DNA of 64,000 nucleotides from an uncultured Chloroflexia bacterium (GCA_963720715.1 CAVRGM010000003.1:45427-109426), one strand, 5' to 3'; shown: positions 2,650-50,654, counted from the stretch's first letter. Numbers and translations: made by a program. The notes: a model not told the origin generated them from the sequence alone.

Positions 2650-4011
2650 ATGGTTGCCAACGACCCCGAACCCAGCACCGTCATCGAGCCCGGCCCGCAG
2701 GGATCGGGCGCCTCCCCGTCGACCGCCGGACCGACCGCGGGCGAAGTCGTGGAGCCTCGTCGGATCCCGCTTCTGGCGATCTCCATCGCGCTCGTCGCTG
2801 TCCTGGCCGGGGCGGCGCTGTTCGTGTCGGGCTACTCGACCGGTCGCCAGGCGGCATCGGACCCGGGCACACCGGTCTCGGATGCGGATGCGTTCCAGCC
2901 GTTCTGGGACACCTACCACATGATCAACGACCGCTATGCCGGTGGCGATGTCGACCGCGAGACCCTGGTCCAGGGCGCCATCCGGGGCATGATCGATTCG
3001 CTGGGTGACCCGTTCTCTGCCTACCTCACCTCGGAGGAGTACCGGCAGAGCCTGCAGGGGATCAGCGGCCAGTTCGAGGGGATCGGTGCGAGGATCGGGA
3101 CGCTGGCCGGCGATGGGACGGAAGGCTGTGCCCCGCTCGGGCCGACGTGTCGGCTGGTGGTCACCGAGCCGATCGGCGGCTCGCCGGCCGAGAAGGCCGG
3201 GATCCTGGCCGGTGACGTCATCGTCGCGGTCGATGGCGGATCGCTCGACGGCCTGACCGTTGACGATGCGGTCGGTCGGATCCGCGGACCGCAGGGCTCG
3301 AGCGTGACCCTGACCATCGAGCGCGCTGACGCCCCTGTCATGGACGTATCCATCACCCGCGATGTCGTCCAGCAGCAGGAAGTCGAATCTCGGGTGCTGG
3401 CGGATGGATCGGTCGGCTATCTGCGCGTTGCCGGCTTCTCGGATGCGGCGGCCGATCAGCTGGTCGCCGCGCTTGCCGATCACCTGGCGGCCGGCCGCAC
3501 CGATATCATCCTCGACCTGCGTGGCAATCTGGGTGGGTACGTCACGGCCGCTCGCAAGATCGCCAGCCAGTTCATCGCGTCCGGACCCATCTTCTGGGAG
3601 CAGGATTCCAGGGGCGTCCAGGTCGCCACGGACGCACTCGGTGACGGGATCGCGACACAATCGGCGGTCCATCTCGTGGTCTTGATCGACGGCAACAGCG
3701 CGTCAGCCAGCGAGATCGTGGCCGGCGCGCTTCAGGACACCGGTCGAGCGACCCTTGTGGGGCGGCAGTCGTATGGCAAGGGTACGGTCCAGCAATGGCA
3801 GGAGCTGAGCGGCGAGGGCGGCGCATTCAAGCTGACCATCGCCCGCTGGTTGACTCCCGACAAGCGCTGGATCCACGGGGTCGGACTCACCCCCGACGTG
3901 GTCGTGACTCTGCCGGACCCGGTGCCGGCCGGGACCGATCCGGACATCGACGCCGCGCTGGATGCGCTTGGGGTTCCGGTCGCGGCGGAGCTGGATCGTC
4001 TGGCGGCCTGA
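2650..4011 (+). CDS. ctpA: carboxyl-terminal processing protease (S41 peptidase with PDZ domain)
   Basis: N-terminal TM anchor, PDZ-like 'GGSPAEKAGILAGDVIVAVDG', and an S41 catalytic region 'LVVLIDGNSASASEIVAGALQD…GRQSYGKGTVQ'. The order ftsE-ftsX-protease is conserved. Confidence 0.8.
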   Translation: MVANDPEPSTVIEPGPQGSGASPSTAGPTAGEVVEPRRIPLLAISIALVAVLAGAALFVSGYSTGRQAASDPGTPVSDADAFQPFWDTYHMINDRYAGGDVDRETLVQGAIRGMIDSLGDPFSAYLTSEEYRQSLQGISGQFEGIGARIGTLAGDGTEGCAPLGPTCRLVVTEPIGGSPAEKAGILAGDVIVAVDGGSLDGLTVDDAVGRIRGPQGSSVTLTIERADAPVMDVSITRDVVQQQEVESRVLADGSVGYLRVAGFSDAAADQLVAALADHLAAGRTDIILDLRGNLGGYVTAARKIASQFIASGPIFWEQDSRGVQVATDALGDGIATQSAVHLVVLIDGNSASASEIVAGALQDTGRATLVGRQSYGKGTVQQWQELSGEGGAFKLTIARWLTPDKRWIHGVGLTPDVVVTLPDPVPAGTDPDIDAALDALGVPVAAELDRLAA

Positions 4012-7510: not shown

Positions 7511-7726
7511 GACGTACCTCGAAGCAGCCCGTCCGGCCTGCGAGGTGAGCTGTCGGGCTCGGCGGTGGGATCGCCGTCGCGTCTTCGCGATTCGCCCCGA
7601 AGGATCTGGGTCCCCCGTCCTCCACGAGGAGGTTCGGCCACGGATAACGGTAGCAGTCTTGTCGTTCGTCGTCCGCTGACCCATTCGTCCGGCCTGAGAC
7701 AGGCGACCTTCGGCGCAAAGCGTGGT

Positions 7727-7760: not shown

Positions 7761-8135
7761 GGGGATGTGTGGTTTCGACAGGGCCTGGCTACCGGGGAAC
7801 GCGAGCCGAGGACGCCACTGGGCCTCGTTAATCACGTGGCAAAAAGAAGTACCTGGCAACCGCCAGTCGACTCTCGCCCTCGCTGCTTAGGCAGTAAGGT
7901 GAGCGTGGAAGCTGCCTCCGCCTCGCGGGTAGTGGAAGCGTCATGCAGCGAGGCTGCGATCCGGATGAGTGACGCGTAGTCCGGAGTCAAGCCCGATCTA
8001 GGGACACGTGACTGGACCGCCCGGCAGGGTGCCGATGTTCGTTCGGGCGGTCGACGACAAACCATCGGACACGCTCGTAGTGGTTTCCGGCGAAGGGTTC
8101 TGGACGGGGAGTTCGACTCTCCCCCATCTCCACCA
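7761..8135 (+). ncRNA. ssrA: tmRNA (SsrA), encoded CCA
   Basis: The 5' end 'GGGGATGTGTGGTTTCGACAGGG' matches the conserved tmRNA 5' acceptor/TLD. The 3' end 'GGACGGGGAGTTCGACTCTCCCCCATCTCCACCA' is the T-arm plus acceptor stem pairing with the 5' GGGGATG. An internal reading frame ends '…AAC CGC CAG TCG ACT CTC GCC CTC GCT GCT TAG' (…NRQSTLALAA-stop) at 7855-7890, the hallmark ALAA degradation-tag ending. Confidence 0.85.
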
Positions 8136-15787: not shown

Positions 15788-15905
15788 CTGTCGGACCGAA
15801 CCTCACTGGCGGGGCGGGGCGGAGAAGGGGCTTGTACCGTCGATGATTGCTGATAACGTTATAAGCAATGGTGTCAAGCCCGGTGGCTTGGATACTGGAG
15901 GGAGC

Positions 15906-18742: not shown

Positions 18743-19933
18743 TCAGCGTCGTCTCCCTCGTCGGCCCTGACGGCCCCGCTCACGGGGGCGGATCGTCGAA
18801 GCGGCCGTGGTCTTCTTCTCGGCGTCGGTCAGGATGGCCGCACGCTTGGATGGCTCGGGTGGGGGTGGCATGGTGACCGGGAATCTGGGGGTATGGCCGG
18901 TCGCGAAGGCCGGGGTTCGGCCGAAGAACGGGAACATCCCGCCCCAGCCGACGATGAGGTACTGCTGGGCGATCGAGAAGATCGTCGCGGTGATCCAGTA
19001 GATGAACAGGCCGGCCGGCAGAAACCCGCCGTAGAACACGGAGATGAGCGGCAGGAAGAGCATCGTCTGACGCTGGATCTTGGTATTCGGATCGTCGTCT
19101 TCCGGCTTGGTCTTGGGCAGCATCATCCGCGACTGGACGAGTTGCAGGCCGGCCGAGGCGATGGCCAGGATGCTGATACCCAGCACGAAGCCGCCGACCC
19201 CGACGGAGAAGATGGTCGACGGCTGGCTGACGTCGACGGTGATCCCGAAGACCGAGATGACGGTGTTGATGCAGGGACCCAGGGCGATATCGGGCATGCC
19301 GGTGGCCGGGTTGATGTTGTTGCAGTTCAGCGGCACGACCTGGTGGCCGAAGACCTCCAGCATCGCCGACGGGTTGACGTTGGTCAGGCCGTTCTGGATG
19401 ACCGAATACATGATGAACAGGAGGGGCATCTGGAGGAGGAGCGGCAGGCAACCGGCCAGGGGGCTGACGCCCCGCTCCTTCATCAACTCCTGCTGCGCCG
19501 CCCGCGACTTCATCGCGTCGCCCTTGTACCGACGCTGGATCTCCTTGATCTCCGGCTGCAACATCTGCGTCCGACGCTGCGACACGAGCTGGCGGCGATA
19601 CAGCGGGATGACCACGCCACGGACGACCAGGGTCAGGACCACGATGGCCCAGCCGATCGCGGCGATGGCGCCAAGACCGGTCAGGAAGTCGTAGACCGCG
19701 ACCAGGATGATGAACATGACCTTGAAGATCGGGGTGAACAGCCAGGCCAGGAAGCTGATCGGGTCGGCGCCGGGCTCGGCGGGCACCAACGGGACGGCCG
19801 CGTGCGACGGTGGCGGGGTGGCCGACGCGCCCGCCTCGGTGCCCGGGGCGGCGCAGGCGGCCAGGGCCACCACGACCAGGATCAACAGGGCGATCGAGCC
19901 GATCCGGTCCCAAGGGATCTGACGGCGTCTCAC
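18743..19933 (-). CDS. yidC: membrane protein insertase YidC
   Basis: 396 aa with a lipoprotein-like N-terminus and the conserved 'GCLPLLLQMPLLFIMY' and 'FLPAGLFIYWITATIFSIAQQYLI' YidC/Oxa1 core. It is flanked by yidD and jag. Confidence 0.85.
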   Translation of the reverse strand: MRRRQIPWDRIGSIALLILVVVALAACAAPGTEAGASATPPPSHAAVPLVPAEPGADPISFLAWLFTPIFKVMFIILVAVYDFLTGLGAIAAIGWAIVVLTLVVRGVVIPLYRRQLVSQRRTQMLQPEIKEIQRRYKGDAMKSRAAQQELMKERGVSPLAGCLPLLLQMPLLFIMYSVIQNGLTNVNPSAMLEVFGHQVVPLNCNNINPATGMPDIALGPCINTVISVFGITVDVSQPSTIFSVGVGGFVLGISILAIASAGLQLVQSRMMLPKTKPEDDDPNTKIQRQTMLFLPLISVFYGGFLPAGLFIYWITATIFSIAQQYLIVGWGGMFPFFGRTPAFATGHTPRFPVTMPPPPEPSKRAAILTDAEKKTTAASTIRPRERGRQGRRGRRR

Positions 19934-19948: not shown

Positions 19949-20155
19949 CTAGCGGACCGGGTCATAGCCGCTCCCGCCCCATGGATGGCAGCGGGCGATC
20001 CGCCGGGCCCCCATCCAGGATCCCTTGAACAGGCCGTACTTGGCGATCGCCTGCTCCGTGTAGTACGAGCAGGTCGGCTCATACCGACAGCTCGACGGCA
20101 TCCACGCGAAGACGAGGCGGTAGAGCTTGATCGCCCCGATCCCGATTCGCTTCAC
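19949..20155 (-). CDS. yidD: membrane protein insertion efficiency factor YidD
   Basis: 68 aa, 'CRYEPTCSYYTEQAIAKYG…RCHPWGGSGYDPV', a canonical YidD. The GTG start overlaps the rnpA stop. Confidence 0.85.
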   Translation of the reverse strand: MKRIGIGAIKLYRLVFAWMPSSCRYEPTCSYYTEQAIAKYGLFKGSWMGARRIARCHPWGGSGYDPVR

Positions 20156-20484
20156 CCAGTGGATCCTCCGAGAGCGCCGCCCTTGATGAGCGTTCGACGC
20201 AGGACGCCGACCAACGTTTCCAGGTCGGCATCGACGATCGCCGGCCGGGCGATGATGAGAACGTCCCAGCCAGGCTGGAACGAAGGCGCCATCACCTTCA
20301 GCGCCTCGCGGAGCCGGCGACGGACTCGATTGCGAACCACCGCCCCGCCGAGCGCTCGGCCGGTCGACAGCCCGAAGCGGGTCGTCTCGAGATCGGTCCG
20401 CCGGAACCGGGCGATAAGGAAGGGGTGGGACCGAGTTGTCCCGCCCGCCTGGAACGCCGCGAAGTCCTGCGGTCGGGAGAGCAT
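20152..20484 (-). CDS. rnpA: ribonuclease P protein component
   Basis: ~110 aa, 'MLSRPQDFAAF…TRFGLSTGRALGGAVVRNRVRRRLREA', the RnpA signature. The ORF track's long N-terminal extension (to 21000) is not RnpA. Coordinates are ±2 nt. Confidence 0.8.
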   Translation of the reverse strand: MLSRPQDFAAFQAGGTTRSHPFLIARFRRTDLETTRFGLSTGRALGGAVVRNRVRRRLREALKVMAPSFQPGWDVLIIARPAIVDADLETLVGVLRRTLIKGGALGGSTG

Positions 20485-20520
20485 CACGAGCCGCGGCGGG
20501 TTGGGGCCGCGTCCGATGGT

Positions 20521-20654
20521 CAGGCTGTCAGCCGTTTTCGACCGCGAGCCCGACGTGTCGCCAGGATGCGACGGCCACCGGCCGACCTCATCCGGGCGCG
20601 GAAGCCGTGCTCCTTGGCGCGGTGGCGCTTCTTTGGCTGATAGGTCTGCTTCAT
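20521..20654 (-). CDS. rpmH: 50S ribosomal protein L34
   Basis: The minus-strand translation '[44 protein letters not shown]' is a textbook L34. It is not listed in the ORF track because it is too short. The stop position is approximate (±3 nt) and lies immediately before rnpA. Confidence 0.8.
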
Positions 20655-21509
20655 CGGGACTGTCCGGGATCCTCTCCATCCGGCCTCGGGGACGGTCTGT
20701 CACTACCCCCTGAAGGCACACGAACGCGCCTGGCACTCGAAAGCGCACGGCGCGTCGTCGTCGGGCGGATGATAGGCCGCCCCCGCGAGGAGTGTCAAAC
20801 GAAGCTGGGTGGGACCTCGGCGGCTGTTCAGCCCTGCGTGAGGCGGCCGACCGTGAACCCGAAGGCAACCGCGACCAGCAGGATCGATCCGCCAAGCAAG
20901 CGTTCGTCAACCGCAGGGATTCGGAAACGGACGGAGCGTCGACCCGGATGCGTGGGGCCGGCGATGCAGCTCCCGATGCAGCTCCCTGGTTTCCGGTCAT
21001 CTGCTCGTCACCCGAGCATCTGGCGGTGGGTTTCGTGACGATCGCCCATCAGACGCGCACCTGTCACCGCCTCCGCCGGCGACGGTCGCGGGCCACGCTT
21101 GGATCGCTCGGTGGTCGGGTGCCTGGCCGAACGGTTCGTGACCAACGCTCGCCGGATGAGCATTCGCCGGAAACCTGGGTCCGCGCCACAACCCGGGTCC
21201 GCGCCACAACCCATCGCGTGACGACTGGCACCGCCGGATCCGTCATCGCCAGTCCATTCGGTGATACTCCCTGGGAGTATCACGGGTCCGCCTTGCGGTG
21301 GCCCTTGGCGCGGTGCTATCCTCTCCGAGCCCTCGGCGCCGGAGACGTACAAGGGGCCCCCGAACCGCCCGAAAACGGCTCATCGGGCATAGCTTGACCG
21401 GTGCCGACGACGTCACGGACCCCACAGCGCGCGACCCCAGGCTCCGTCACCTATCCCTGGCCGACGCTACCCATCTACCGACGAACCTAACGCAGGATCC
21501 CATCGACGA

Positions 21510-22913
21510 ATGGACGCAAAGCAAGTCTGGCGAGCCGCCCTCGGAGAACTCCAGGTGTCGCTCTCCCCGGCCAATTTCGAGACCTGGCTGCGCGATACCC
21601 GACTGGTCGATGTCGACGACCAACGGTTCCGGATCTCAGTCCCGAATGGCTTCGCCAAGGACTGGCTCGAGTCGCGCTATCGGTCGCTGATCAGCCAGAC
21701 CCTGGCCCGCATCGTCGGCTACAGCGTCCAGGTCGAATTCATCGTCGGGAGCACCGAGGAAGCCGCTGGCGGCGACCCGGAGCCGGCCCCGGATGGCACG
21801 GATCCGTCGGTTGGCCGGCCGACGGCCATCGCTCCGGAACGACAGCACGTTCGGGTCGAGCCGGGTCGTGTCGGCGGCGAGGGCGGGACCACCTACATCA
21901 ATCCCCGCTACACCTTCAACAACTTCATCGTCGGATCTGCCAATCGGCTCGCTCACGCCGCCAGCCTGTCGGTCGCCGAACGACCGGGGCACGCCTATAA
22001 CCCACTCTTCCTGTACGGCGGGGTCGGCCTCGGCAAGACCCACCTGATGCATGCCATCGGGAATCAGGTCATCGCCAAGTTCCCACGCAAACGAGTCGTC
22101 TATGCGACGAGCGAGAAGTTCACCAACGAATTCATCGCCTCCATCCAGCAAGGCAAGATCGACGAGTTCCGGGCTCGCTACCGGCGGATCGATCTGCTCC
22201 TCATCGATGACATCCAGTTCATCGCCGACAAGGAGCGGACCCAGGAAGAGTTCTTCCATACGTTCAACGCGATCCACGAGGACGGCAAGCAGATCGTCCT
22301 GTCGAGCGACCGGCCACCCAAGGCCATCCTGACCCTCGAGGAGCGCCTCCGCAGTCGATTCGAGTGGGGTCTCATCGCGGACCTGACCGCACCGGATCTT
22401 GAGACCCGGATCGCCATCCTCCGGGCGAAGGCCGAGGAAGGCGCCGTCCCGATCACGTCGGACGTCATCGAATTCATCGCGCGCAAGGTCGTCAGCAACA
22501 TCCGTGAGCTGGAAGGCGCCCTCAACCGGATCGTCGCCTATGCCAGCATGGGTGCCATGCCGATCAGCATCGAACTGGCCCAGGCCGTGCTGTCGAATGT
22601 CCTGTACAACCCCAAGAAGCGCCAGGTCACGCCGGAACGGATCGCCCGGGTCGTGTCCGACTACTACTCCGTCCCGATGGACGTCCTGCAGGGCAAGAAG
22701 CGGGACAAGGCGATCGTCGTGCCGCGCCAGATCGCGATGTTCCTGATGCGCGAGGAGACCGACGTCTCGCTGCTGCGGATCGGCGCCGAACTCGGCGGCC
22801 GGGATCATTCGACCGTCCTCCACGCCTGCGACAAGATCAACCGCGAGGTCGCGGTCAATGACGAGCTCCGACGCGAGATCGCCGCGGTCAGGGAGCTCAT
22901 CTACGCCGACTGA
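21510..22913 (+). CDS. dnaA: chromosomal replication initiator DnaA
   Basis: 467 aa with domain I, a Pro/Gly-rich linker, AAA+ 'GGVGLGKTHLMHAIG', and the C-terminal DNA-binding 'LLRIGAELGGRDHSTVLHA'. Confidence 0.95.
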   Translation: MDAKQVWRAALGELQVSLSPANFETWLRDTRLVDVDDQRFRISVPNGFAKDWLESRYRSLISQTLARIVGYSVQVEFIVGSTEEAAGGDPEPAPDGTDPSVGRPTAIAPERQHVRVEPGRVGGEGGTTYINPRYTFNNFIVGSANRLAHAASLSVAERPGHAYNPLFLYGGVGLGKTHLMHAIGNQVIAKFPRKRVVYATSEKFTNEFIASIQQGKIDEFRARYRRIDLLLIDDIQFIADKERTQEEFFHTFNAIHEDGKQIVLSSDRPPKAILTLEERLRSRFEWGLIADLTAPDLETRIAILRAKAEEGAVPITSDVIEFIARKVVSNIRELEGALNRIVAYASMGAMPISIELAQAVLSNVLYNPKKRQVTPERIARVVSDYYSVPMDVLQGKKRDKAIVVPRQIAMFLMREETDVSLLRIGAELGGRDHSTVLHACDKINREVAVNDELRREIAAVRELIYAD

Positions 22914-23214
22914 ATCCGGTGGATATCCGGCCAGCCGGGCGTCGACGAGTGGCCGCTCGACGGTGGACGGCGGTTCCCGATCAGGCTCTGATCGTGGGCC
23001 GACATGCGAACTGTCCACCGTCCGTCAACCACCGGTCCCCGACCGCCGGCTAGATCGCCCACCGCCCGGGACGGCCTGTCCACCACCCGACCGCGCACGA
23101 CCACACGAGACGACCCACACTGTCCACACCATTACTACGGTGATGATGAGGTGAGAAGATAGGGAGAGATACCCACCTACCGACGGGCGCGTTCGCGCTC
23201 GGGAACGATGTGGA
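22914..23214 (+). promoter_or_regulatory. dnaA-dnaN intergenic region with three DnaA-box-like motifs (candidate oriC core)
   Basis: xTGTCCACx motifs lie at 23013-23019, 23077-23083 and 23121-23128 (the last is CTGTCCACA), all in the same orientation. They are followed by a more AT-rich stretch 'cattactacggtgatgatgaggtgagaagataggg' before dnaN. Actinobacterial oriC typically lies between dnaA and dnaN. Confidence 0.5.
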
Positions 23215-24345
23215 GTGCAGCCCAACGTGAAACTCTCGGTCATGCAAGAGAACCTGGCGCGCGGTCTATCGGTCGTGAGCCGCGCCGTGTCCAATCGCAG
23301 CACGTTGCCGGTCCTGGCCAACGTCCTGCTCAAGACGGAAGACGCCGGACTCAAACTGACCGCCACGAATCTCGAGATCGGCATCACCTACTGGGTCCCC
23401 GGCAAGATCGAGACCGACGGCGCGACGACCGTACCGGCGAAGCTGTTGACCGATCTGGTCGGTTCACTGCCGGCGGGCGACCGGGTCGATCTGGAATTGA
23501 ACGCCGGTGACACCCTGCACCTGCGTTGTGGACGGTTCGAGACCAACGTCAAGGGCATCGATGCCGACGAATTCCCGGCGATCGGGGCCGCCGGCGAGCG
23601 ACCGACGACCCGCATCTCGCAATCGATCCTGAAGCGAGCGCTGGCTGAGACCGCGTTCGCAGCGGCCACCGACGAAGCTCGGCCGATCCTGACCGGTGTC
23701 CTGGCCCGTTTCGAGGGCGACCAGTTGACATTGGCGGCCGCTGACAACTATCGGATCGCGGTCAAGACCATCCCGATCCTGGACGCGGTCCCCGAGACGA
23801 GCATCGTCATCCCGGCCAGGGCGCTCAATGAGCTGACCCGCATCCTGGCCGATGTCGACGACCCGATCGAGGTCGTCCTGACCGGTGGCCGGAACCAGAT
23901 CGTGTTCCACCTTGATGGGATCGACCTCGTCAGCCGACTCATCGACGGCCAGTTCCCCAACTACCAGCAGGTCGTACCCCAGAACCACACGACACGGGCC
24001 GAGCTCGATCGCGAGGAGCTGTTGCGAGCGGTCCGGCCTGCGGCCCTGATCGCCCACGAATCGGCGAACATCGTGAAGCTCCAGGTCAGCGCCGATGGGG
24101 AACCGGGGATCACGGTCAGTGCCAACGCGGAGGTCGGCGACCTCGTCGGCCAGGTCGAGGCCACGGTCGAGGGTGACGGGACCACGATCGCCTTCAACGC
24201 CCGCTATCTCGCGGACGTCCTGACCAACGTGGCTGCGGATCGGTTCGCTCTTGAATTGAACGGCCCGCTCTCGCCAGGCGTCTTCAAGCCGATCGGCGAT
24301 GACGGCTACATCCACGTCGTCATGCCGGTCCGGACCACCTCCTAA
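23215..24345 (+). CDS. dnaN: DNA polymerase III beta sliding clamp
   Basis: 376 aa with three-domain beta-clamp conservation. A GTG start at 23215 or 23227 ('VKLSVMQENL') is possible. Confidence 0.9.
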   Translation: MQPNVKLSVMQENLARGLSVVSRAVSNRSTLPVLANVLLKTEDAGLKLTATNLEIGITYWVPGKIETDGATTVPAKLLTDLVGSLPAGDRVDLELNAGDTLHLRCGRFETNVKGIDADEFPAIGAAGERPTTRISQSILKRALAETAFAAATDEARPILTGVLARFEGDQLTLAAADNYRIAVKTIPILDAVPETSIVIPARALNELTRILADVDDPIEVVLTGGRNQIVFHLDGIDLVSRLIDGQFPNYQQVVPQNHTTRAELDREELLRAVRPAALIAHESANIVKLQVSADGEPGITVSANAEVGDLVGQVEATVEGDGTTIAFNARYLADVLTNVAADRFALELNGPLSPGVFKPIGDDGYIHVVMPVRTTS

Positions 24346-25949: not shown

Positions 25950-28229
25950 ATGGCCGTACGGCTCAACATGACCCTCGGCGTCGTCGCCGAGCACGACCGA
26001 CTCGCCGACTCGCCGGACACGCTGACCGTGGTCGAGCCGAGTGTCGGCTCGGTCGCGCGCTCCAAGGGCAACCTGTACCTGCTGGTCACCTCGCGCCTCT
26101 CATCCCGCCACGCCCTGGAGGCCACCCGGCTGGCGGCCGAGACGATCCGGAACGAGTACTACTACGACGAGTCGGCGGGGATCCGGGTCTGCCTCCAGAA
26201 GTCGATCGCGACCGCCAACAAGCGACTCGCTCATCAGGCCGACCGGTTGGGTCTCAAGTCGGCCGATGGCAACGGCCCGATCGGGATCGGGGTCGCCGTC
26301 GTCCGCGGCACGGAGATGTACGTCGCCACGGTCGGTCCCGCTGAGGCCTACCTGATCCGTCAGGCTCGGCTATCGACCTTGCCCGATCCGAACCGGGACA
26401 GTGGCTTGCCGGCGGGGGCGCTCGAACCCGAAGTCTGGCGTGGCGAGATCGCGGTCGGCGATTCGCTCGTGCTGGTATCGCCCAACGTCATCGCCAAGCT
26501 GGGGGCCGATGAGCTGAAGGACGCCATGTTGACGCTCCATCCGCAATCGGCCATGGAGCACCTCCATCAGCGCTTCGTGAGCGCCGATGGGTCGGGCAGC
26601 GATGGCGCGATCGCCTTCGAGGCGACCGAGGTGTCTTCGACAAGCCGCGCCCGGACGCTCGTCCCGGTCCGTCCGGCCGAGCCGCTGGCCGGTGCCCCGG
26701 ATCGCTCGCCGATCCCCCTGGCCGACAATGTCCAGGCTGCCGGGGTCGCGGTCAGTGCCGCGGCCGGCAACGCGCGCGACGCCGCGGGCAACGCCGTCGA
26801 GCGGACCGTCGCCCGCGTTCAGGGCCTGATGCCGCGTCGCAAGCAGGCGTATCGACGAGTCACGCCGCTCGCCTCTCGACGCGAGACCCAGCGGCGGGCG
26901 GCTCTGGCCGTCCTCGTCCTGGCCATCGTGGTCGGCGGCCTCGGGCTGGCGGTCTATGCCTTGAGCGGCAACACCCCGCAGCAGGCGATCAGCTCGGTCA
27001 ACACCGGCCAGGCTGCGCTGGATCTCGCCCGGACCGACCTGGCCAAGGTCAGCGGTCCCGGGATCGACCTGATCACCGACGATCGCGCCCAGGCGCTGGA
27101 CCTGCTGACCGAGGCCTATGCCCAGCTCGACGTCGCGGCAAAGGCCAACGTCAGCGAATCGGTCATCGCCCCGCTGCGTGCCCAGACCGTGGCCGGCCTG
27201 GACCGCCTGTACGGCGTGGTGCCGGTAGCGTCGACGGACCTGTACACCTTCAAGCCGGAAGCAGACGCCGACCCCATCGACCTGTCGGCGATGGTCCGGG
27301 GACCCGACGGGATGCCCTACGTCATCGATCGCTCGACCAAGACCGTCTATCGCATCAACCTGAAGACCGGTGAGGCGACGACGGTCATCCGGCAAGGCAC
27401 CAAGGGCCCGGGCGGGACCGTCGCCAACCCGCGATTCCTTGCGGTGGGTGGACAGGATCTGTTGATCATGGATGCCAGGAACGTCCTGTGGCGCTGGCGC
27501 CCGGCGAACGATTCCGGCAAGGGCACCCTGACCCGGGTCACCGTCAACGGCTCGGCCTCTCTGGGCGACGACATCATGGGCATCAACACGTTCCTGCGTC
27601 CCGGTACGCGGGGGCTGTACAACTTGTACATCGTCGACCCATCCGAGCAGCAGATCCGGGCCTTCTCGCCGGCCGCTGACGGCGGCGGCTTCCCGGCCAA
27701 GGCCACCGACTGGTTGGCCACTGCGCGCGATGTGTCGAAGATGACCGCGACGTACGTCGACGGCGACCTCTATGCGACCGACGATGGCCAACTGGTGCGC
27801 TTCTACGGGGGCAAGAGCGAAGGCTGGAACCCGAAAGCCCCCGACGATCAATCGCTGCGGCCTGCTCCGGTCTACTCGCTCCTGGCGTCGGCCAGCGAAA
27901 CGAGGTCAGGCGTCATCTACGCCTTCGATGGACCGAATGACCGGGTCATCGCCCTGGCCAAGTCGGACGGCAGCTACCAGGCTCAATATCGACTGGCCGG
28001 CGGAGCCCAGGACTGGTCGGATCTGCGGGCGATGTACGTGGTTGCCGGCGAGGCGGACAAGCCGAATACGCTCGTCTGGATGTCGGGTGACGGCGTCCAC
28101 CAGGCGATCCTCGTCGCGGTCCCGGACGACGTCCCGGCCGCGACGCCCAGTCCGACCCCCACGCCCACGGCGGAGCCGACCAAGAAACCGCCCAAGAAGA
28201 AGAGTCCCAAGCCGACCAAGAAGCCCTGA
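25950..28229 (+). CDS. membrane-anchored protein with degenerate PP2C-like N-terminal domain, extracytoplasmic beta-rich domain and Pro/Lys-rich tail
   Basis: 759 aa. The N-terminal ~250 aa follow the PP2C fold pattern ('GNLYLLVTSRL…EMYVATVGPAEAYLIRQARL…GDSLVLVSPNV') but lack the canonical metal-binding Asp residues. A single TM 'AALAVLVLAIVVGGLGLAVYAL' sits at ~aa 300. The C-terminus 'PTPTPTAEPTKKPPKKKSPKPTKKP'. Confidence 0.55.
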   Translation: MAVRLNMTLGVVAEHDRLADSPDTLTVVEPSVGSVARSKGNLYLLVTSRLSSRHALEATRLAAETIRNEYYYDESAGIRVCLQKSIATANKRLAHQADRLGLKSADGNGPIGIGVAVVRGTEMYVATVGPAEAYLIRQARLSTLPDPNRDSGLPAGALEPEVWRGEIAVGDSLVLVSPNVIAKLGADELKDAMLTLHPQSAMEHLHQRFVSADGSGSDGAIAFEATEVSSTSRARTLVPVRPAEPLAGAPDRSPIPLADNVQAAGVAVSAAAGNARDAAGNAVERTVARVQGLMPRRKQAYRRVTPLASRRETQRRAALAVLVLAIVVGGLGLAVYALSGNTPQQAISSVNTGQAALDLARTDLAKVSGPGIDLITDDRAQALDLLTEAYAQLDVAAKANVSESVIAPLRAQTVAGLDRLYGVVPVASTDLYTFKPEADADPIDLSAMVRGPDGMPYVIDRSTKTVYRINLKTGEATTVIRQGTKGPGGTVANPRFLAVGGQDLLIMDARNVLWRWRPANDSGKGTLTRVTVNGSASLGDDIMGINTFLRPGTRGLYNLYIVDPSEQQIRAFSPAADGGGFPAKATDWLATARDVSKMTATYVDGDLYATDDGQLVRFYGGKSEGWNPKAPDDQSLRPAPVYSLLASASETRSGVIYAFDGPNDRVIALAKSDGSYQAQYRLAGGAQDWSDLRAMYVVAGEADKPNTLVWMSGDGVHQAILVAVPDDVPAATPSPTPTPTAEPTKKPPKKKSPKPTKKP

Positions 28230-30347: not shown

Positions 30348-33300
30348 ATGCCCTATCTGCGCCCTGTGCTACGCTCCCAGCCACCTTCCACGCTCGTGCA
30401 GGAGCCGTTCCCGGTGACTGGCCCCGAGACACACGGGATCGAGCGAGAGACACGAGCGCCGTCATTGGTGACCGGGACGCGGGGAGCCGTCGGCGCGATC
30501 CTCGTCGTCCTCGCGCTCGGCCTGGTCTTCCGTCTGATCCTCGCATATCGACTTCCAGGCTCCGGGTTCGAGGTCGACCTGGGCGCATTCCGGTACTGGG
30601 CGTCGAACCTCGCCTCCGAAGGGCCGTTCGGCTTCTACGACCGCGACTTCTTCCACGACTACACGCCTGGCTACCTGTACGTCCTGTGGCTCGTCGGCGT
30701 CGTCGGCAACGTCGTCGGTGGTGTTGGCGACCTGATCAAGATCCCGCCGATCCTGGCCGACCTGGCCATCGGCTGGCTCGTCTGGTCGATGGTCCGCGAG
30801 CTCGGCGGGCGGGACCGGCTGGCGCTGGCGGCGGGGCTCGTGGCCGTCCTGAACCCGATCACCTGGTTCGACAGCGTCGTCTGGGGCCAGGCCGATTCAG
30901 TCGGTGTCGTGTTCCTGTTGCTCGGGTTGCGCGAGCTGTGGCGCGACCGGCCCGAACGGGCGGCGATCTTCACGGTCGTCGCGGCGATCATCAAGCCGCA
31001 ACTCGGGATCCTCATCCCGATCGTCGCCGTGGTCACCATCCGGCGCGCACTCTGGCCAGCCGGCGGGCACGGCGACCCGACCCGGACCGGGCGACCGCTC
31101 AGGATCCTGACGACCGGTCTGGCCGGCTACCTGACCGCCGTGGTCATGTGCCTGCCGTTCGGCCTGACCGTCATCGGGTTGAGCGGCCAGCCGCCGTATC
31201 TGACGTCCGGGCTGCTGGAACAGGTCGCGGTCGCAGCCGGCGGCTATCCGTACCTGACGGTGAACGCCTACAACCCCTGGGCGCTGATGCCGTCCGATCT
31301 CGGCCAGAGTCTGGCCAACGCCGGGCAATGGGTCTGTGACTATGCCGGGACGGCCGCGGACTGTGGGGCCGGGTCGGCCACGTTCGGACCGATCCCTGCC
31401 GTAGTCGTCGGTACGACCCTGCTCCTGGCGGCGATCGCGCTGATCCTGGTGGTCGTCGCCCGGCGTCCCGACCGGCTGACCCTGCTCGTCGGCCTGGCCG
31501 TCCTGGCCCTGGCATTCTTCGTCCTTCCGACCCGGGTCCACGAGCGGTACGGCTTCCCGTTCTTCGCCATGGCCGTGATCCTGGCGGCGATCTCGTGGCG
31601 CTGGCGGATCGCCTACCTCGTCCTGTCCGTGGCGACGTTCGCCAACATGTACGTCGTCCTGACCACGCTCTATCCCGACAACCCGTCGATCGCGGATTGG
31701 CTGGGCCTCGGGCCGGCCATCCGCTCCGAGGCGGGAGTCATCGCCGTCTCCGTGCTGCATACGGCGGCCTTCGCCTGGGCGTTCCTGCAGCTCAGGTCGG
31801 GGACGCGCGCCCGGCTCGCCAACGAACTCGCGGCAGCGTCGGTGAAGGATCCGCCCGAGGCGGCAGCGGATCCCGGAGAACCCGTCGCGCCTCCCGTTCC
31901 CGCGCTGGGGACCGGCATTCGAACCCGTTCCGCAGGGGCCGCGGTCCGACCACCCGTGGTCGGACCGGCCGTGGCCGCGACCATGCCGACCTGGAAGGCT
32001 CGGCCCAGCTTCGAGGAGACCGGCATCGTCGGCTGGTTCCGGGCTCGCCTGGCTGACCCTCCCGTCCGGCCCGACCGGAGTGCCGTCCTTCGGTCGGAGG
32101 GCGGGGGGCGGCTGGACCGACTCGATCTGTGGTTGGTCATCGCCCTCGTCGTCGGCTCGATGTTGCTGCGCACGTATCGACTCGAACAGCCGTACCAGAT
32201 GCACTTCGACGAGGTGTACCACGCTCGGACCGCGGCCGAATTCCTCCAGGATTGGCGCTACGGCCTGTCCCACGACATCTACGAATGGACGCACCCACAC
32301 CTGGCCAAGTACGCGATGGCCGGCGGGCTCGTCCTGTGGGGCGGCGATCACGTCGGCGCGACGAGCGACCTCGGTGTGCCGGTCCGTGGCGTCGCGGTCG
32401 AGCCTCGGCGGCTCGACCAGTCGGCTCCCGGATCGCGGGCCGGTGAACGCCTCCACGTTGCCACTGGGTCCGAGGTCCGAACCTACGACCTGAACAGCCG
32501 AGCGCTGCTCTCAGTCGTCCCCTCTCCGGGCGCCACGAGCGTGGCCATCGATGACGCCCGAAACCAGCTGGTCGTCGGGGGTGAAGACGGCAGCCTGTCC
32601 ACTCTCGACCTCGCCTACCTCGACGCCGACGGGCAAGAGGCCGGGGTGGAGCCGCTTGCACTCGCGACCGTCGATCACCCGGTCGACCATCTGCTGGTCA
32701 GCCAGGACGGCGCAACGGTCATCGCGGCCTCCGGCGAGCGGCTGTCGGTGGTGGACCTTGACAGCGGCCAGGTGAAGGGCTCGATGGACCTGCCGGCCAT
32801 CGCCGATCTGGCGCCTGGGGGCAGTGGATCGTCGGTCGTGGCCGACATCGATGAAGTGACCGACCCGGCGGCTGTCGCCTCCGCCCTGGCGGCCATCCTC
32901 GATGCGGACGGGTCGTCCGGGTCCGAGGCCGACCTGGCCGCCGATTTCGAGGACCGCCTGGCATCTGGCGCGGCCGGCGGTTCGGTCACGCTCGGTGACC
33001 CGGGCAGCGGCGATACCCGAACGGCGCTCGACGACGCCATCGCCAGCGGGTCACTGCCGGGTGTCCGGGTCGACCAGGTCGACCGGATCGCGGTGGCGAC
33101 CGGCGACGGGGTCGCCTTCATCGATCCGGACCGGGTCTCGCTGATCACGACCGTCGTGCTCGAGGGTGGTGCCCACGGCCTCGCCATGGCGACCGGTCTG
33201 GATGACCCGAAGCTGTACGCGACAGCCGGTGACGCCAGCGCACCCGCCTACGAAGTGATCACCGTCGGCGGTGACTCGGCCAAGGGAGGACCGGTCGCCA

Positions 33301-50130: not shown

Positions 50131-50640
50131 GGCGGCCAACCTGGCGCGGCAACCTGGCGCGCGTGACGTGGCGCGGCAACCTGGCGCGTGCCGAAACGTG
50201 GCGCGGCAACCTGGCGCGTGCCGCAACCTGGCGCGTGCCGCAACCTGGCGCGTGTGTAGGACGCGGGTCTGGCACGAACACGCCTGGTGATGGCCGAGTA
50301 TCGACAATATCGGCACAAAGTCGACGTCGATCACGCCTGTTCATCCCGAACGCGCGTCTATGACACGCGGCCACGGACACGCGGCCGCCACGGTCACCGG
50401 CGCGTGGGACGTGGCGCGGCAACCTGGGACGTGGCGCGGCAACCTGGCGCGTGCCGCAACCTGGCGCGTGTGTAGGACGCGGGTCTGGCACGAACACGCC
50501 TGGTGATGGCCGAGTATCGACAATATCGGCACAAAGTCGACGTCGATCACGCCTGTTCATCCCGAACGCGCGTCTATGACACGCGGCCACGGACACGCGG
50601 CCGGCCACGGTCACCGACCGGCCACGGTCACCGGCCGGCC
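50131..50640. repeat. complex non-coding repeat: ~216-bp unit tandemly duplicated (≈50199-50414 and ≈50415-50630) containing internal 16-17-bp sub-repeats GCGGCAACCTGGCGCG(TGCC) (≥7 copies) and CCACGGTCACCG(G/A)CCGG (3 copies)
   Basis: A direct read shows identical ~165-bp cores ('tgtgtaggacgcgggtctggcacgaacacgcctggtgatggccgagtatcgacaatatcggcacaaagtcgacgtcgatcacgcctgttcatcccgaacgcgcgtctatgacacgcggccacggacacgcggccg') at 50253-50387 and 50469-50603. Each is preceded by tandem GCAACCTGGCGCG units. The region lies between the convergent corA and otsB-like genes. Confidence 0.75.
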
Positions 50641-50654
50641 ACGTCGAGTCCTCG

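Follow-up and report, generated by a model that had tools for sequence, protein, structure and literature searches.

A putative CsoR-type operator upstream of dnaA and a candidate single-part replication origin in an uncultured Chloroflexota bacterium

Our analyses concern a stretch of 64,000 nucleotides (64 kb), hereafter the window, from the genome of an uncultured Chloroflexia bacterium (GCA_963720715.1 CAVRGM010000003.1:45427-109426), and within it the region that runs from rpmH, the gene of ribosomal protein L34, through the initiator gene dnaA to dnaN. They make it probable that this region combines two separate elements: a single-part chromosome replication origin located in the gap between dnaA and dnaN, and a divergent rpmH-dnaA promoter region in which a conserved palindrome constitutes a putative operator of the CsoR family of copper sensors.

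Results

Host and related genomes

Homologues of the window's DnaA at 91% identity carry the label Candidatus Limnocylindrales, an order within the class Limnocylindria, in a large protein database. Judged from these homologues, the host is a Limnocylindrales-like member of the Chloroflexota and not an actinobacterium. It is an uncultivated soil bacterium. The initial annotation of this DNA, made from the sequence alone, had spoken of an actinobacterial position of the origin, a description that is withdrawn here. An origin between dnaA and dnaN is not specific to actinobacteria. Limnocylindria is an abundant and uncultivated class of soil and freshwater. For comparison, the window's DnaA was used to scan one genome per species, which provided 11 close relatives (L001-L011; DnaA 73-92% identical), picked solely by DnaA similarity; all of them are metagenome-assembled genomes of Chloroflexota, labelled Thermomicrobiales, Chloroflexia, Chloroflexota or Candidatus Limnocylindrales. 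The 12 loci, spacers or gaps referred to below are those of the window and these 11 relatives.

A conserved palindrome upstream of the predicted dnaA promoter

The spacer between rpmH and dnaA contains the following elements of main interest, the first of which is present exactly as it had been annotated:

21261-21283, perfect 23-bp palindrome GTGATACTCCC-T-GGGAGTATCAC
21263-21281, conserved core of the palindrome, GATACTCCC-T-GGGAGTATC, candidate operator of the CsoR family (DUF156)
21293-21322, plus strand, predicted dnaA promoter with -35 element TTGCGG (21293-98), 18-nt spacer and extended -10 element TGC-TATCCT (21314-22)

Taken alone, the palindrome is statistically ordinary, other perfect inverted repeats with arms of 11-12 nt being found in the window, and its significance stems from conservation. 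Ten of the 11 relatives carry a single copy of the core, GATACYCC-N3-GGRGTAT, located some 240-250 bp ahead of the start of dnaA, and the 69 further dnaA loci that were retrieved all lack it; no further copy of the palindrome exists in the 64-kb window, even when three mismatches are allowed. The block just after the palindrome has the consensus CGCCTTGCG...GGTGCTATCCTCTCC, and its invariant positions in the 12 spacers are exactly the TTGC and GCTA...T of the predicted dnaA promoter, from which transcription would start near 21329. The element TGCTAnnnT also precedes leaderless genes of thioredoxin reductase (trxB) of the same order (TGCTAGGAT elements).

In the window and in eight relatives, 45 bp lie between the palindrome centre and the -10 hexamer, compared with 44 bp in a ninth relative and 56 bp in a tenth; the centre of the window's palindrome is thereby placed at about -57 of the predicted promoter. 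Among the dnaA-linked metagenome loci listed in which a -10 element could be placed, this distance is 44-46 bp in at least 21 and 54-56 bp in at least 19, two classes that lie one helical turn apart. The earlier suggestion that the palindrome is a candidate regulator site is thus upheld by its retention in 10 of 11 relatives at a near-fixed distance from the predicted dnaA promoter.

The same sequence at copper, csoR and trxB genes

CsoR operators bear the signature TAC-X9-GTA, accompanied by G/C tracts on the inside and, about 11 bp apart, AT-rich repeats on the outside; type 2 operators possess two short G/C tracts separated by 2-4 intervening bases, and the consensus for Streptomyces lividans CsoR is ATATACCCCTNAGGGGTATAT (PMC3902906). 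The site of the window reads GA-TAC-TCCCTGGGA-GTA-TC, in which TAC (21265-67) and GTA (21277-79) flank TCCCTGGGA, and the TAC-X9-GTA signature is kept in the 10 of 11 relatives, which show the ATACCCC variant. Between ATA and TAT, which are 11 bp apart, lie CCC and GGG, the two tracts being split by a single base in the window (CCC-T-GGG) and arranged as CCCC-TGG-GGGG and similar in the relatives.

A scan of metagenome contigs for exact matches to GATACTCCCNGGGAGTAT (17 specified bases) identified at least 120 loci, the proportions among the matches listed not being unbiased. At least 52 of these loci are rpmH-dnaA spacers of the same clade. Among the 68 listed loci that do not involve dnaA, the sequence is next to a copper ATPase, YHS, csoR or trxB gene in 52, lying directly upstream of thioredoxin reductase genes in at least 24, of copper P-type ATPases (HMA-type or His-rich) in at least 18, of genes for YHS/Cys-rich proteins in at least 5 and of csoR genes (PF02583) in at least 5. 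All these genes read away from the site, and their identities were confirmed with Pfam; CsoR probes served as leads only, and the matches obtained with them were confirmed in the same way. Metagenome-assembled genomes of Limnocylindrales encode CsoR proteins with the Cys-His-Cys set of Cu(I) ligands and an RLxR-type motif, and ATACT...AGTAT sites are found upstream of those csoR genes.

The trxB loci with the site are from the same order, with one homologue labelled Limnocylindrales, and in three contigs of 1-1.9 Mb the site is centred near -32, upstream of a trxB start of the leaderless type. As separate observations, the thioredoxin reductases of Limnocylindrales (L201-L203 around 2960-3010; L117, L120 and others) carry an N-terminal extension of about 45 amino acids, and the CsoR-type palindrome, with its centre near -32, accompanies promoters of the leaderless type (TGCTAGGAT, 6-7 nt, ATG) in front of their genes. 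This arrangement suggests that trxB belongs to the copper regulon in Limnocylindrales.

From the agreement with known operators and the genes found next to identical sites, the palindrome is most likely the operator of a copper(I)-sensing repressor of the CsoR family. Besides the bias of the metagenome matches, several observations weigh against this interpretation or narrow it. Known CsoR operators overlap the core promoter, which is the case at the trxB sites (centre about -32) and not at dnaA, where the centre lies 45 bp upstream of the -10 element, at about -57 (or -68). Because the operator lies upstream of the core promoter, its regulatory effect at dnaA is uncertain, a circumstance that weakens classical repression of dnaA and not binding by CsoR as such. 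A single insertion of 11 bp may account for the two spacing classes, which makes the argument from helical phasing a weak one. The predicted dnaA promoter agrees with the consensus at 7 of 12 positions and is not called by a strict consensus scan, so that its prediction rests on conservation. Finally, no csoR gene is found in the 64-kb window, and sites of the dnaA type and of the trxB type were not placed together in any single genome.

We consider it unlikely that the palindrome is instead the site of another dimeric regulator, or of a nucleoid protein, specific to the dnaA promoter, in which case its identity with the copper and trxB sites would be due to convergence or cross-talk and dnaA would not be under CsoR control. 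The position of the dnaA site upstream of the core promoter, unlike that near -32 at trxB, and the lack of a csoR gene nearby speak in favour of such a regulator, and GAATCGCC, a conserved block located between palindrome and -35 element, could belong to a larger composite site. Against it, the 17 specified bases are identical at copA, copB, YHS, csoR and trxB genes in 52 of the 68 non-dnaA matches listed, and the T/C wobble seen in the relatives is also that of the CsoR-type ATACCCC variant. If the cell has a CsoR, that protein should also recognise the copy at dnaA.

DnaA boxes clustered within the dnaA-dnaN gap

The extent of the gap depends on the start of dnaN. In the alignment of gaps, the frame of a GTG at 23215 is broken in most relatives and only that of the second GTG (23227) is kept, for which reason the latter is taken as the dnaN start; the gap accordingly spans 22914-23226 and measures 313 bp, slightly more than the 300 bp that had been annotated. 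It contains seven DnaA-box-like 9-mers within 210 bp (22918-23128), two reverse and five forward, the last two of which abut:

22918-26, minus strand, reverse DnaA box ATATCCACC
22962-70, minus strand, reverse DnaA box CCGTCCACC
23011-19, plus strand, forward DnaA box CTGTCCACC
23055-63, plus strand, degenerate forward DnaA box TCGCCCACC, placed by alignment
23076-84, plus strand, forward DnaA box CTGTCCACC
23111-19, plus strand, degenerate forward DnaA box CGACCCACA, placed by alignment, abutting the next
23120-28, plus strand, forward DnaA box CTGTCCACA
23129-23180, candidate DNA unwinding element, a conserved block of low stability after the tandem boxes, CC-ATTACTACGGTGATGATGAGGTGAGAAGATAGGGAGAGATACCCAC
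23212-15, plus strand, ribosome-binding site GGAG of dnaN, followed by the GTG start codon at 23227-29

Three of these boxes correspond to the TGTCCAC motifs (23012-18, 23077-83 and 23121-27) that the initial annotation had reported, the first of them one base off (23013-23019); the two reverse and the two degenerate forward boxes had been overlooked. Scanning with a position weight matrix built from the boxes of the relatives, which defines the clade consensus yyGTCCACv, returned five boxes of at least 10 bits (10.3 and 11.0 bits for the reverse ones), the remaining two being the degenerate copies. Each forward box matches a conserved [C/T]GTCCAC column block in the alignment of the 12 loci, and the reverse boxes sit in the same part of the gap in the relatives. 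TGTCCAC has 9 copies in the 64 kb vs 8.1 expected; a stretch of 116 bp contains three of the nine, all on one strand, and no other spot of the window is as dense in TCCAC as the gap (6 in 313 bp, a count reached by 0.05% of windows). The density of TCCAC per kb is 16.6 in the 12 dnaA-dnaN gaps, 1.65 in the 12 rpmH-dnaA spacers and 2.0 window-wide, and GTCCAC is the commonest hexamer of the 12 gaps, with 60 copies that occur mostly as CGTCCAC. The cluster agrees with the presence of at least three DnaA boxes at an average spacing below 100 bp that is used as an origin criterion (PMC7561715).

A further sequence, the 16-mer TACCCAyCTACCGACG, occurs with 15 of 16 positions identical at 21468-21483 and 23170-23185, ahead of the dnaA start by 42 nt and of the dnaN start by 57 nt, and the relatives conserve its core TACCCAYC at both sites. 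A role as a weak DnaA box (ATACCCACC) for autoregulation is conceivable.

The candidate unwinding element and the putative single-part origin

The block that follows the tandem boxes consists of CC, TTA CTA (bottom strand 3'-AAT GAT-5') and then GATGATGA; it includes the 9-mers GAGAAGATA (23153-61) and GAGA-GATA (23164-71), which are 11 bp apart and conserved in the relatives, and the weak box ATACCCACC at 23169-77. The locally AT-richer segment noted after the boxes proved real, its guanine-plus-cytosine (GC) content being 0.57 vs about 0.68. By nearest-neighbour energies, only one 50-mer of the 64 kb is less stable than 23130-23180 (z = 4.2), the block is also second among 30-bp stretches (z ~4), and the least stable 80-bp stretch is 23099-23179. 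The positions and orientation of the boxes are conserved column by column in the 12 loci together with the unstable block downstream. Two side observations concern the same block: AGAAGATA is present in 13 copies in 8 of the gaps, and the 9-mers at 23153-23171 recall the 13-mer repeats of Escherichia coli oriC on the complementary strand.

The strand polarity of the E. coli unwinding element and its R1 box is the textbook basis for comparison, and the gap shows the same polarity, with the pyrimidine-rich strand bearing the TGTGGA reading of the box. The basal unwinding system is described as a DnaA box that is followed, after 0-16 bp of spacer, by three or more NAN trios with the consensus 3'-GAT-5', where the first box has at most two mismatches to TTATCCACA and a tandem second box at most four, and the trios are counted on the strand complementary to that of TTATCCACA, within 16 bp of the box (PMC8287927); the geometry of the strands was taken from the example of Clostridioides difficile (PMC7561715). 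In the window, CTGTCCACA (23120-28) has two mismatches to TTATCCACA and the abutting CGACCCACA (23111-19) has three, and the spacer between boxes and trios is within these rules.

Two points limit the case for an origin at this place. The canonical trios amount to two, 3'-AAT GAT-5' (top strand TTA CTA, 23132-37), and a permissive series of three NAN trios is provided only by 3'-CAC TAC TAC-5' (23140-48), 11 bp from the box, for which a random chance of about 10% was estimated; in the relatives, the 3-nt periodic pattern of the block is kept and GAT is not. The GC skew is 0.014 to the left and 0.011 to the right of the locus, with no switch within the 64 kb, which is too short a stretch for this criterion. 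The skew of the window follows the coding strand (-0.015 for plus-strand genes, +0.040 for minus-strand genes) and for this reason is no argument against an origin here, and gene-strand bias is uninformative as an origin test at 64 kb.

The genes around the gap, identified with Pfam, are arranged in the order yidC-rnpA-rpmH / dnaA-dnaN-recF-dciA, canonical for an origin:

18743-19933, minus strand, yidC (60KD_IMP, E = 5e-44)
20152-20523, minus strand, rnpA (Ribonuclease_P, E = 2e-18)
20520-20654, minus strand, rpmH, ribosomal protein L34 (Ribosomal_L34, E = 8e-21)
21510-22913, plus strand, dnaA (DnaA_N, Bac_DnaA, Bac_DnaA_C)
23227-24345, plus strand, dnaN (three DNA_pol3_beta domains from residue 1), followed by recF (SMC_N, RecF-like) and dciA (DciA)

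From this anatomy we infer that the dnaA-dnaN gap is an ordinary single-part chromosome replication origin. An origin in this gap had been proposed before, and the proposal is strengthened by the box cluster, the low-stability block and a layout common to the 11 related genomes. It appears improbable that the boxes of the gap merely autoregulate transcription of dnaA and dnaN, with the real origin elsewhere on the chromosome. The lack of a GC skew switch at the locus and the small number of canonical DnaA-trios would accord with such an arrangement, but seven boxes adjoin the least stable non-coding DNA of the window in a layout conserved over 12 genomes, they share the strand polarity of the R1 box and unwinding element of E. 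coli, the gene context, which includes dciA, is canonical, and the skew simply tracks the coding strand.

Even less probable, to a degree that we give it very little weight, is a bipartite origin as in Bacillus subtilis or Helicobacter pylori, with the rpmH-dnaA spacer as its second half. Bipartite origins flanking dnaA are known (PMC7561715) and the spacer is long, yet TCCAC is absent from its 855 bp and, at 1.65 per kb, is below the window average in the 12 spacers, most of the spacer is not conserved, and it contains no unusually unstable stretch.

As to the surroundings of the single-part origin, the DciA gene (PF05258; 25505-25837, plus strand) lies immediately 3' of recF in the origin cluster. 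DciA is what we take to be the ancestral helicase operator. Right after dciA, in a place often occupied by gyrB, an open reading frame (ORF) of 759 amino acids (25950-28229, plus strand) shows a clear coding signal and no Pfam match even at E < 0.1. In one relative, a 3.2-kb insertion (L005:4152-7322) separates dnaA from the box cluster and dnaN, and two others (L006 and L009) have an extra ORF between rpmH and dnaA. Going by these cases, the flanks of the origin are insertion-tolerant in the clade.

The rpmH-dnaA spacer as a probable divergent promoter region

The spacer (20655-21509) has the length of 855 bp that had been claimed for it. Its description as unusually long is qualified by the relatives, whose spacers range from 331 to 966 bp, the two longest bearing an extra gene; in this comparison, the length in the window is a lineage-specific accident. 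The spacer also lacks obvious DnaA boxes, as was annotated, no TCCAC being found in it. Only three of its parts can be aligned across the relatives: the first 145 bp by rpmH, the palindrome, and the block just after the palindrome. No coding signal was detected in the spacer by codon-position GC, and four ORFs in it have no Pfam match. On these sequence features, the spacer is a divergent promoter region and not part of the origin. Besides the palindrome and the dnaA promoter, it contains:

20655-20762, minus strand, 5' leader of the rpmH mRNA, about 108 nt, with highly conserved columns and two predicted hairpins
20769-20798, minus strand, predicted rpmH promoter with TTGACA (20798-20793), 18-nt spacer and TATCAT (20774-20769)
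20800-21250, lineage-specific filler of about 460 bp, non-coding and non-conserved
20962-20986, 12-bp tandem repeat, 2.1 copies, in the filler
21172-21212, 18-bp tandem repeat, 2.3 copies, in the filler

The rpmH promoter is the sole sigma-70-type match in 20500-23300, with 11 of 12 consensus positions, and GTGTCAAAC and GGATGATA are each found in 10 of the 12 spacers. The consensus fold of the rpmH leader (RNAalifold) has -36.7 kcal/mol and 31 pairs, three of them with compensatory changes, and no Rfam family matches the leader at the gathering threshold; it may be a leader of the kind found in operons of ribosomal proteins or RNase P.

On the dnaA side, the 5' untranslated region of about 190 nt shows as conserved RNA structure one small hairpin only, without covariation. 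Two candidates were discarded here: GTGCTANNNT was tried as a general promoter motif, and its two matches in the window are too few to judge; CAGAAT, which stands right after the palindrome in several relatives and could have marked a second dnaA promoter, is absent in the window and was not adopted. The other GTGCTANNNT copy of the window (GTGCTACGCT, 30366-30375) is also located in a divergent intergenic region, consistent with TGCTAnnnT being the extended -10 element of the lineage.

It is extremely improbable that the palindrome works in a transcript as an RNA hairpin, for instance as a processing or termination signal, and not as a DNA operator. A stem of 10-11 bp would be stable, and on the minus strand 10 of the 11 variants stay paired if G-U pairs are allowed; however, position 5 of the arms varies between T and C independently in both arms, which produces C-A mismatches on the plus strand in four of the 11 sequences and is more in keeping with a protein site than with an RNA hairpin, the stem is not followed by a T-run, no terminator is called, the palindrome sits upstream of the conserved dnaA promoter, and the copies at trxB and copA are found in one or the other orientation, in front of promoters.

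Both tandem repeats exist, and they had been proposed, like the palindrome, as candidate sites of regulators. As exact or near-exact tandem copies within a regulatory spacer they might seem suited to this role, for which we nevertheless see hardly any chance: they are missing from all the relatives, they are located in filler for which no homologue was found in the alignment of the relatives or by blastn and tblastx in more than 200 loci, the extra ORF of L006 and L009 included, and Tandem Repeats Finder returns 75 rows for the window, several of which score as high or higher. Because they lack counterparts in the relatives and have ordinary scores, both repeats look like recent slippage duplications in fast-evolving filler and not like binding sites, and we propose no function for them. 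Conservation in relatives, on which the initial annotation had let its reading of these elements depend, is thus found for the core of the palindrome and for neither repeat.

Other features of the window

An Rfam scan of the whole window returned nothing in the origin region and, elsewhere, only a transfer-messenger RNA (tmRNA) gene and a c-di-AMP riboswitch, which adjoin each other (riboswitch, 7520-7649, minus strand, 70 bits; tmRNA gene, 7761-8135, plus strand, 118 bits). An AT-rich near-perfect palindrome, ATTGCTGATAACGTTATAAGCAAT (15846-15869), also among the least stable stretches of the window, is situated at the start of a gene for a family 4 glycoside hydrolase and is probably the operator of a sugar regulator. 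A complex tandem array at 50132-50643 consists of two copies of a 216-bp period with 97% identity, with sub-repeats of 13-30 bp such as GCGGCAACCTGGCGCGTGCC.

Discussion

The arrangement described above would operate in two separate parts. In the dnaA-dnaN gap, DnaA would bind the two reverse and five forward boxes of the GTCCAC type, the abutting pair (23111-28) would point the DnaA oligomer into the low-stability block and open it, and the helicase would then be loaded at the opened block with the participation of DciA. Upstream of dnaA, a pair of apo-CsoR tetramers would sit on the palindrome, at about -70 to -45 of the dnaA promoter, where it might modulate transcription, for instance by covering the zone in which RNA polymerase makes its upstream contacts, and not act as a full switch; Cu(I) or thiol stress would release CsoR from this operator. 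At trxB and copA, where the site covers the -35 region, the same protein would exert classical repression relieved by Cu(I). Modulation instead of a full switch would suit an essential gene such as dnaA.

Extended to the class as a whole, the proposal becomes more tentative. It is possible, and no stronger word seems appropriate, that throughout Limnocylindria a CsoR that senses Cu(I) or thiol stress occupies an operator that is conserved, helically phased and situated immediately upstream of the dnaA promoter, that stress is thereby coupled to the level of the initiator, and that dnaA is co-regulated with thioredoxin reductase and copper exporters.

While the origin itself is routine, the analysis offers a first sequence-level picture of a putative oriC of Limnocylindria, with yyGTCCACv boxes, a single part, a conserved candidate unwinding block and DciA nearby. 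The palindrome is the one element of the region worth follow-up. A search of a literature library found no report linking CsoR to a dnaA promoter, and a CsoR-type operator at dnaA appears to be undescribed; if bound, it would constitute a direct link from the sensing of copper and thiol stress to the replication initiator, in a lineage whose CsoR regulon is suggested to include thioredoxin reductase.

Comparison with known systems

Conserved sites for transcription factors other than DnaA are known next to dnaA or oriC in other phyla, the stress or cell-cycle regulators involved being MtrA in Mycobacterium, CtrA in Caulobacter and Spo0A in Bacillus. The putative operator described here resembles them in its location and differs in the protein family and the signal concerned, none of those three regulators being known as a metal sensor.

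With type 2 operators of CsoR (Streptomyces lividans; copZA of B. subtilis) it shares the TAC-X9-GTA dyad, the AT-rich outer repeats 11 bp apart and the inner C-tract and G-tract, and the same sequence is found upstream of copA, copZ-like and csoR genes. In contrast to them, the half-site of the window is ATACTCC, with T or C at position 5, a single base stands between C3 and G3, the site lies at about -57 of the dnaA promoter instead of over the core promoter, and thioredoxin reductase and, as a new member, dnaA appear to belong to the regulon. The type 1 operator of E. coli RcnR, another DUF156 protein (TACT-G6-N-AGTA), has in common the outer TACT/AGTA inverted repeat around a G/C tract, whereas its sites are arranged in tandem and have a single uninterrupted G6 tract; the CsoR homologues associated with the palindrome have the Cys-His-Cys ligands for Cu(I) and not the Ni/Co set of RcnR.

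The candidate origin, for its part, resembles the origins known between dnaA and dnaN, such as incC of B. subtilis, the unwinding region of oriC2 in C. difficile and the basal unwinding system (Richardson 2019, Pelliciari 2021), in its place next to dnaA, in a cluster of TTATCCACA-like boxes with a tandem pair aimed at the unwinding region, in a short GC spacer followed by A/T-richer DNA, and in the E. coli-type polarity of box and pyrimidine strand. Unlike those origins, its boxes have the core GTCCAC (yyGTCCACv) and not TTATCCACA, its canonical trios are limited to two, the relatives showing a 3-nt periodic ATG/GTG-ATG-ACG (3'-TAC-5' on the expected strand), it is a single-part origin with no box cluster upstream of dnaA, and the helicase loader encoded nearby is DciA and not DnaD/DnaB/DnaI.

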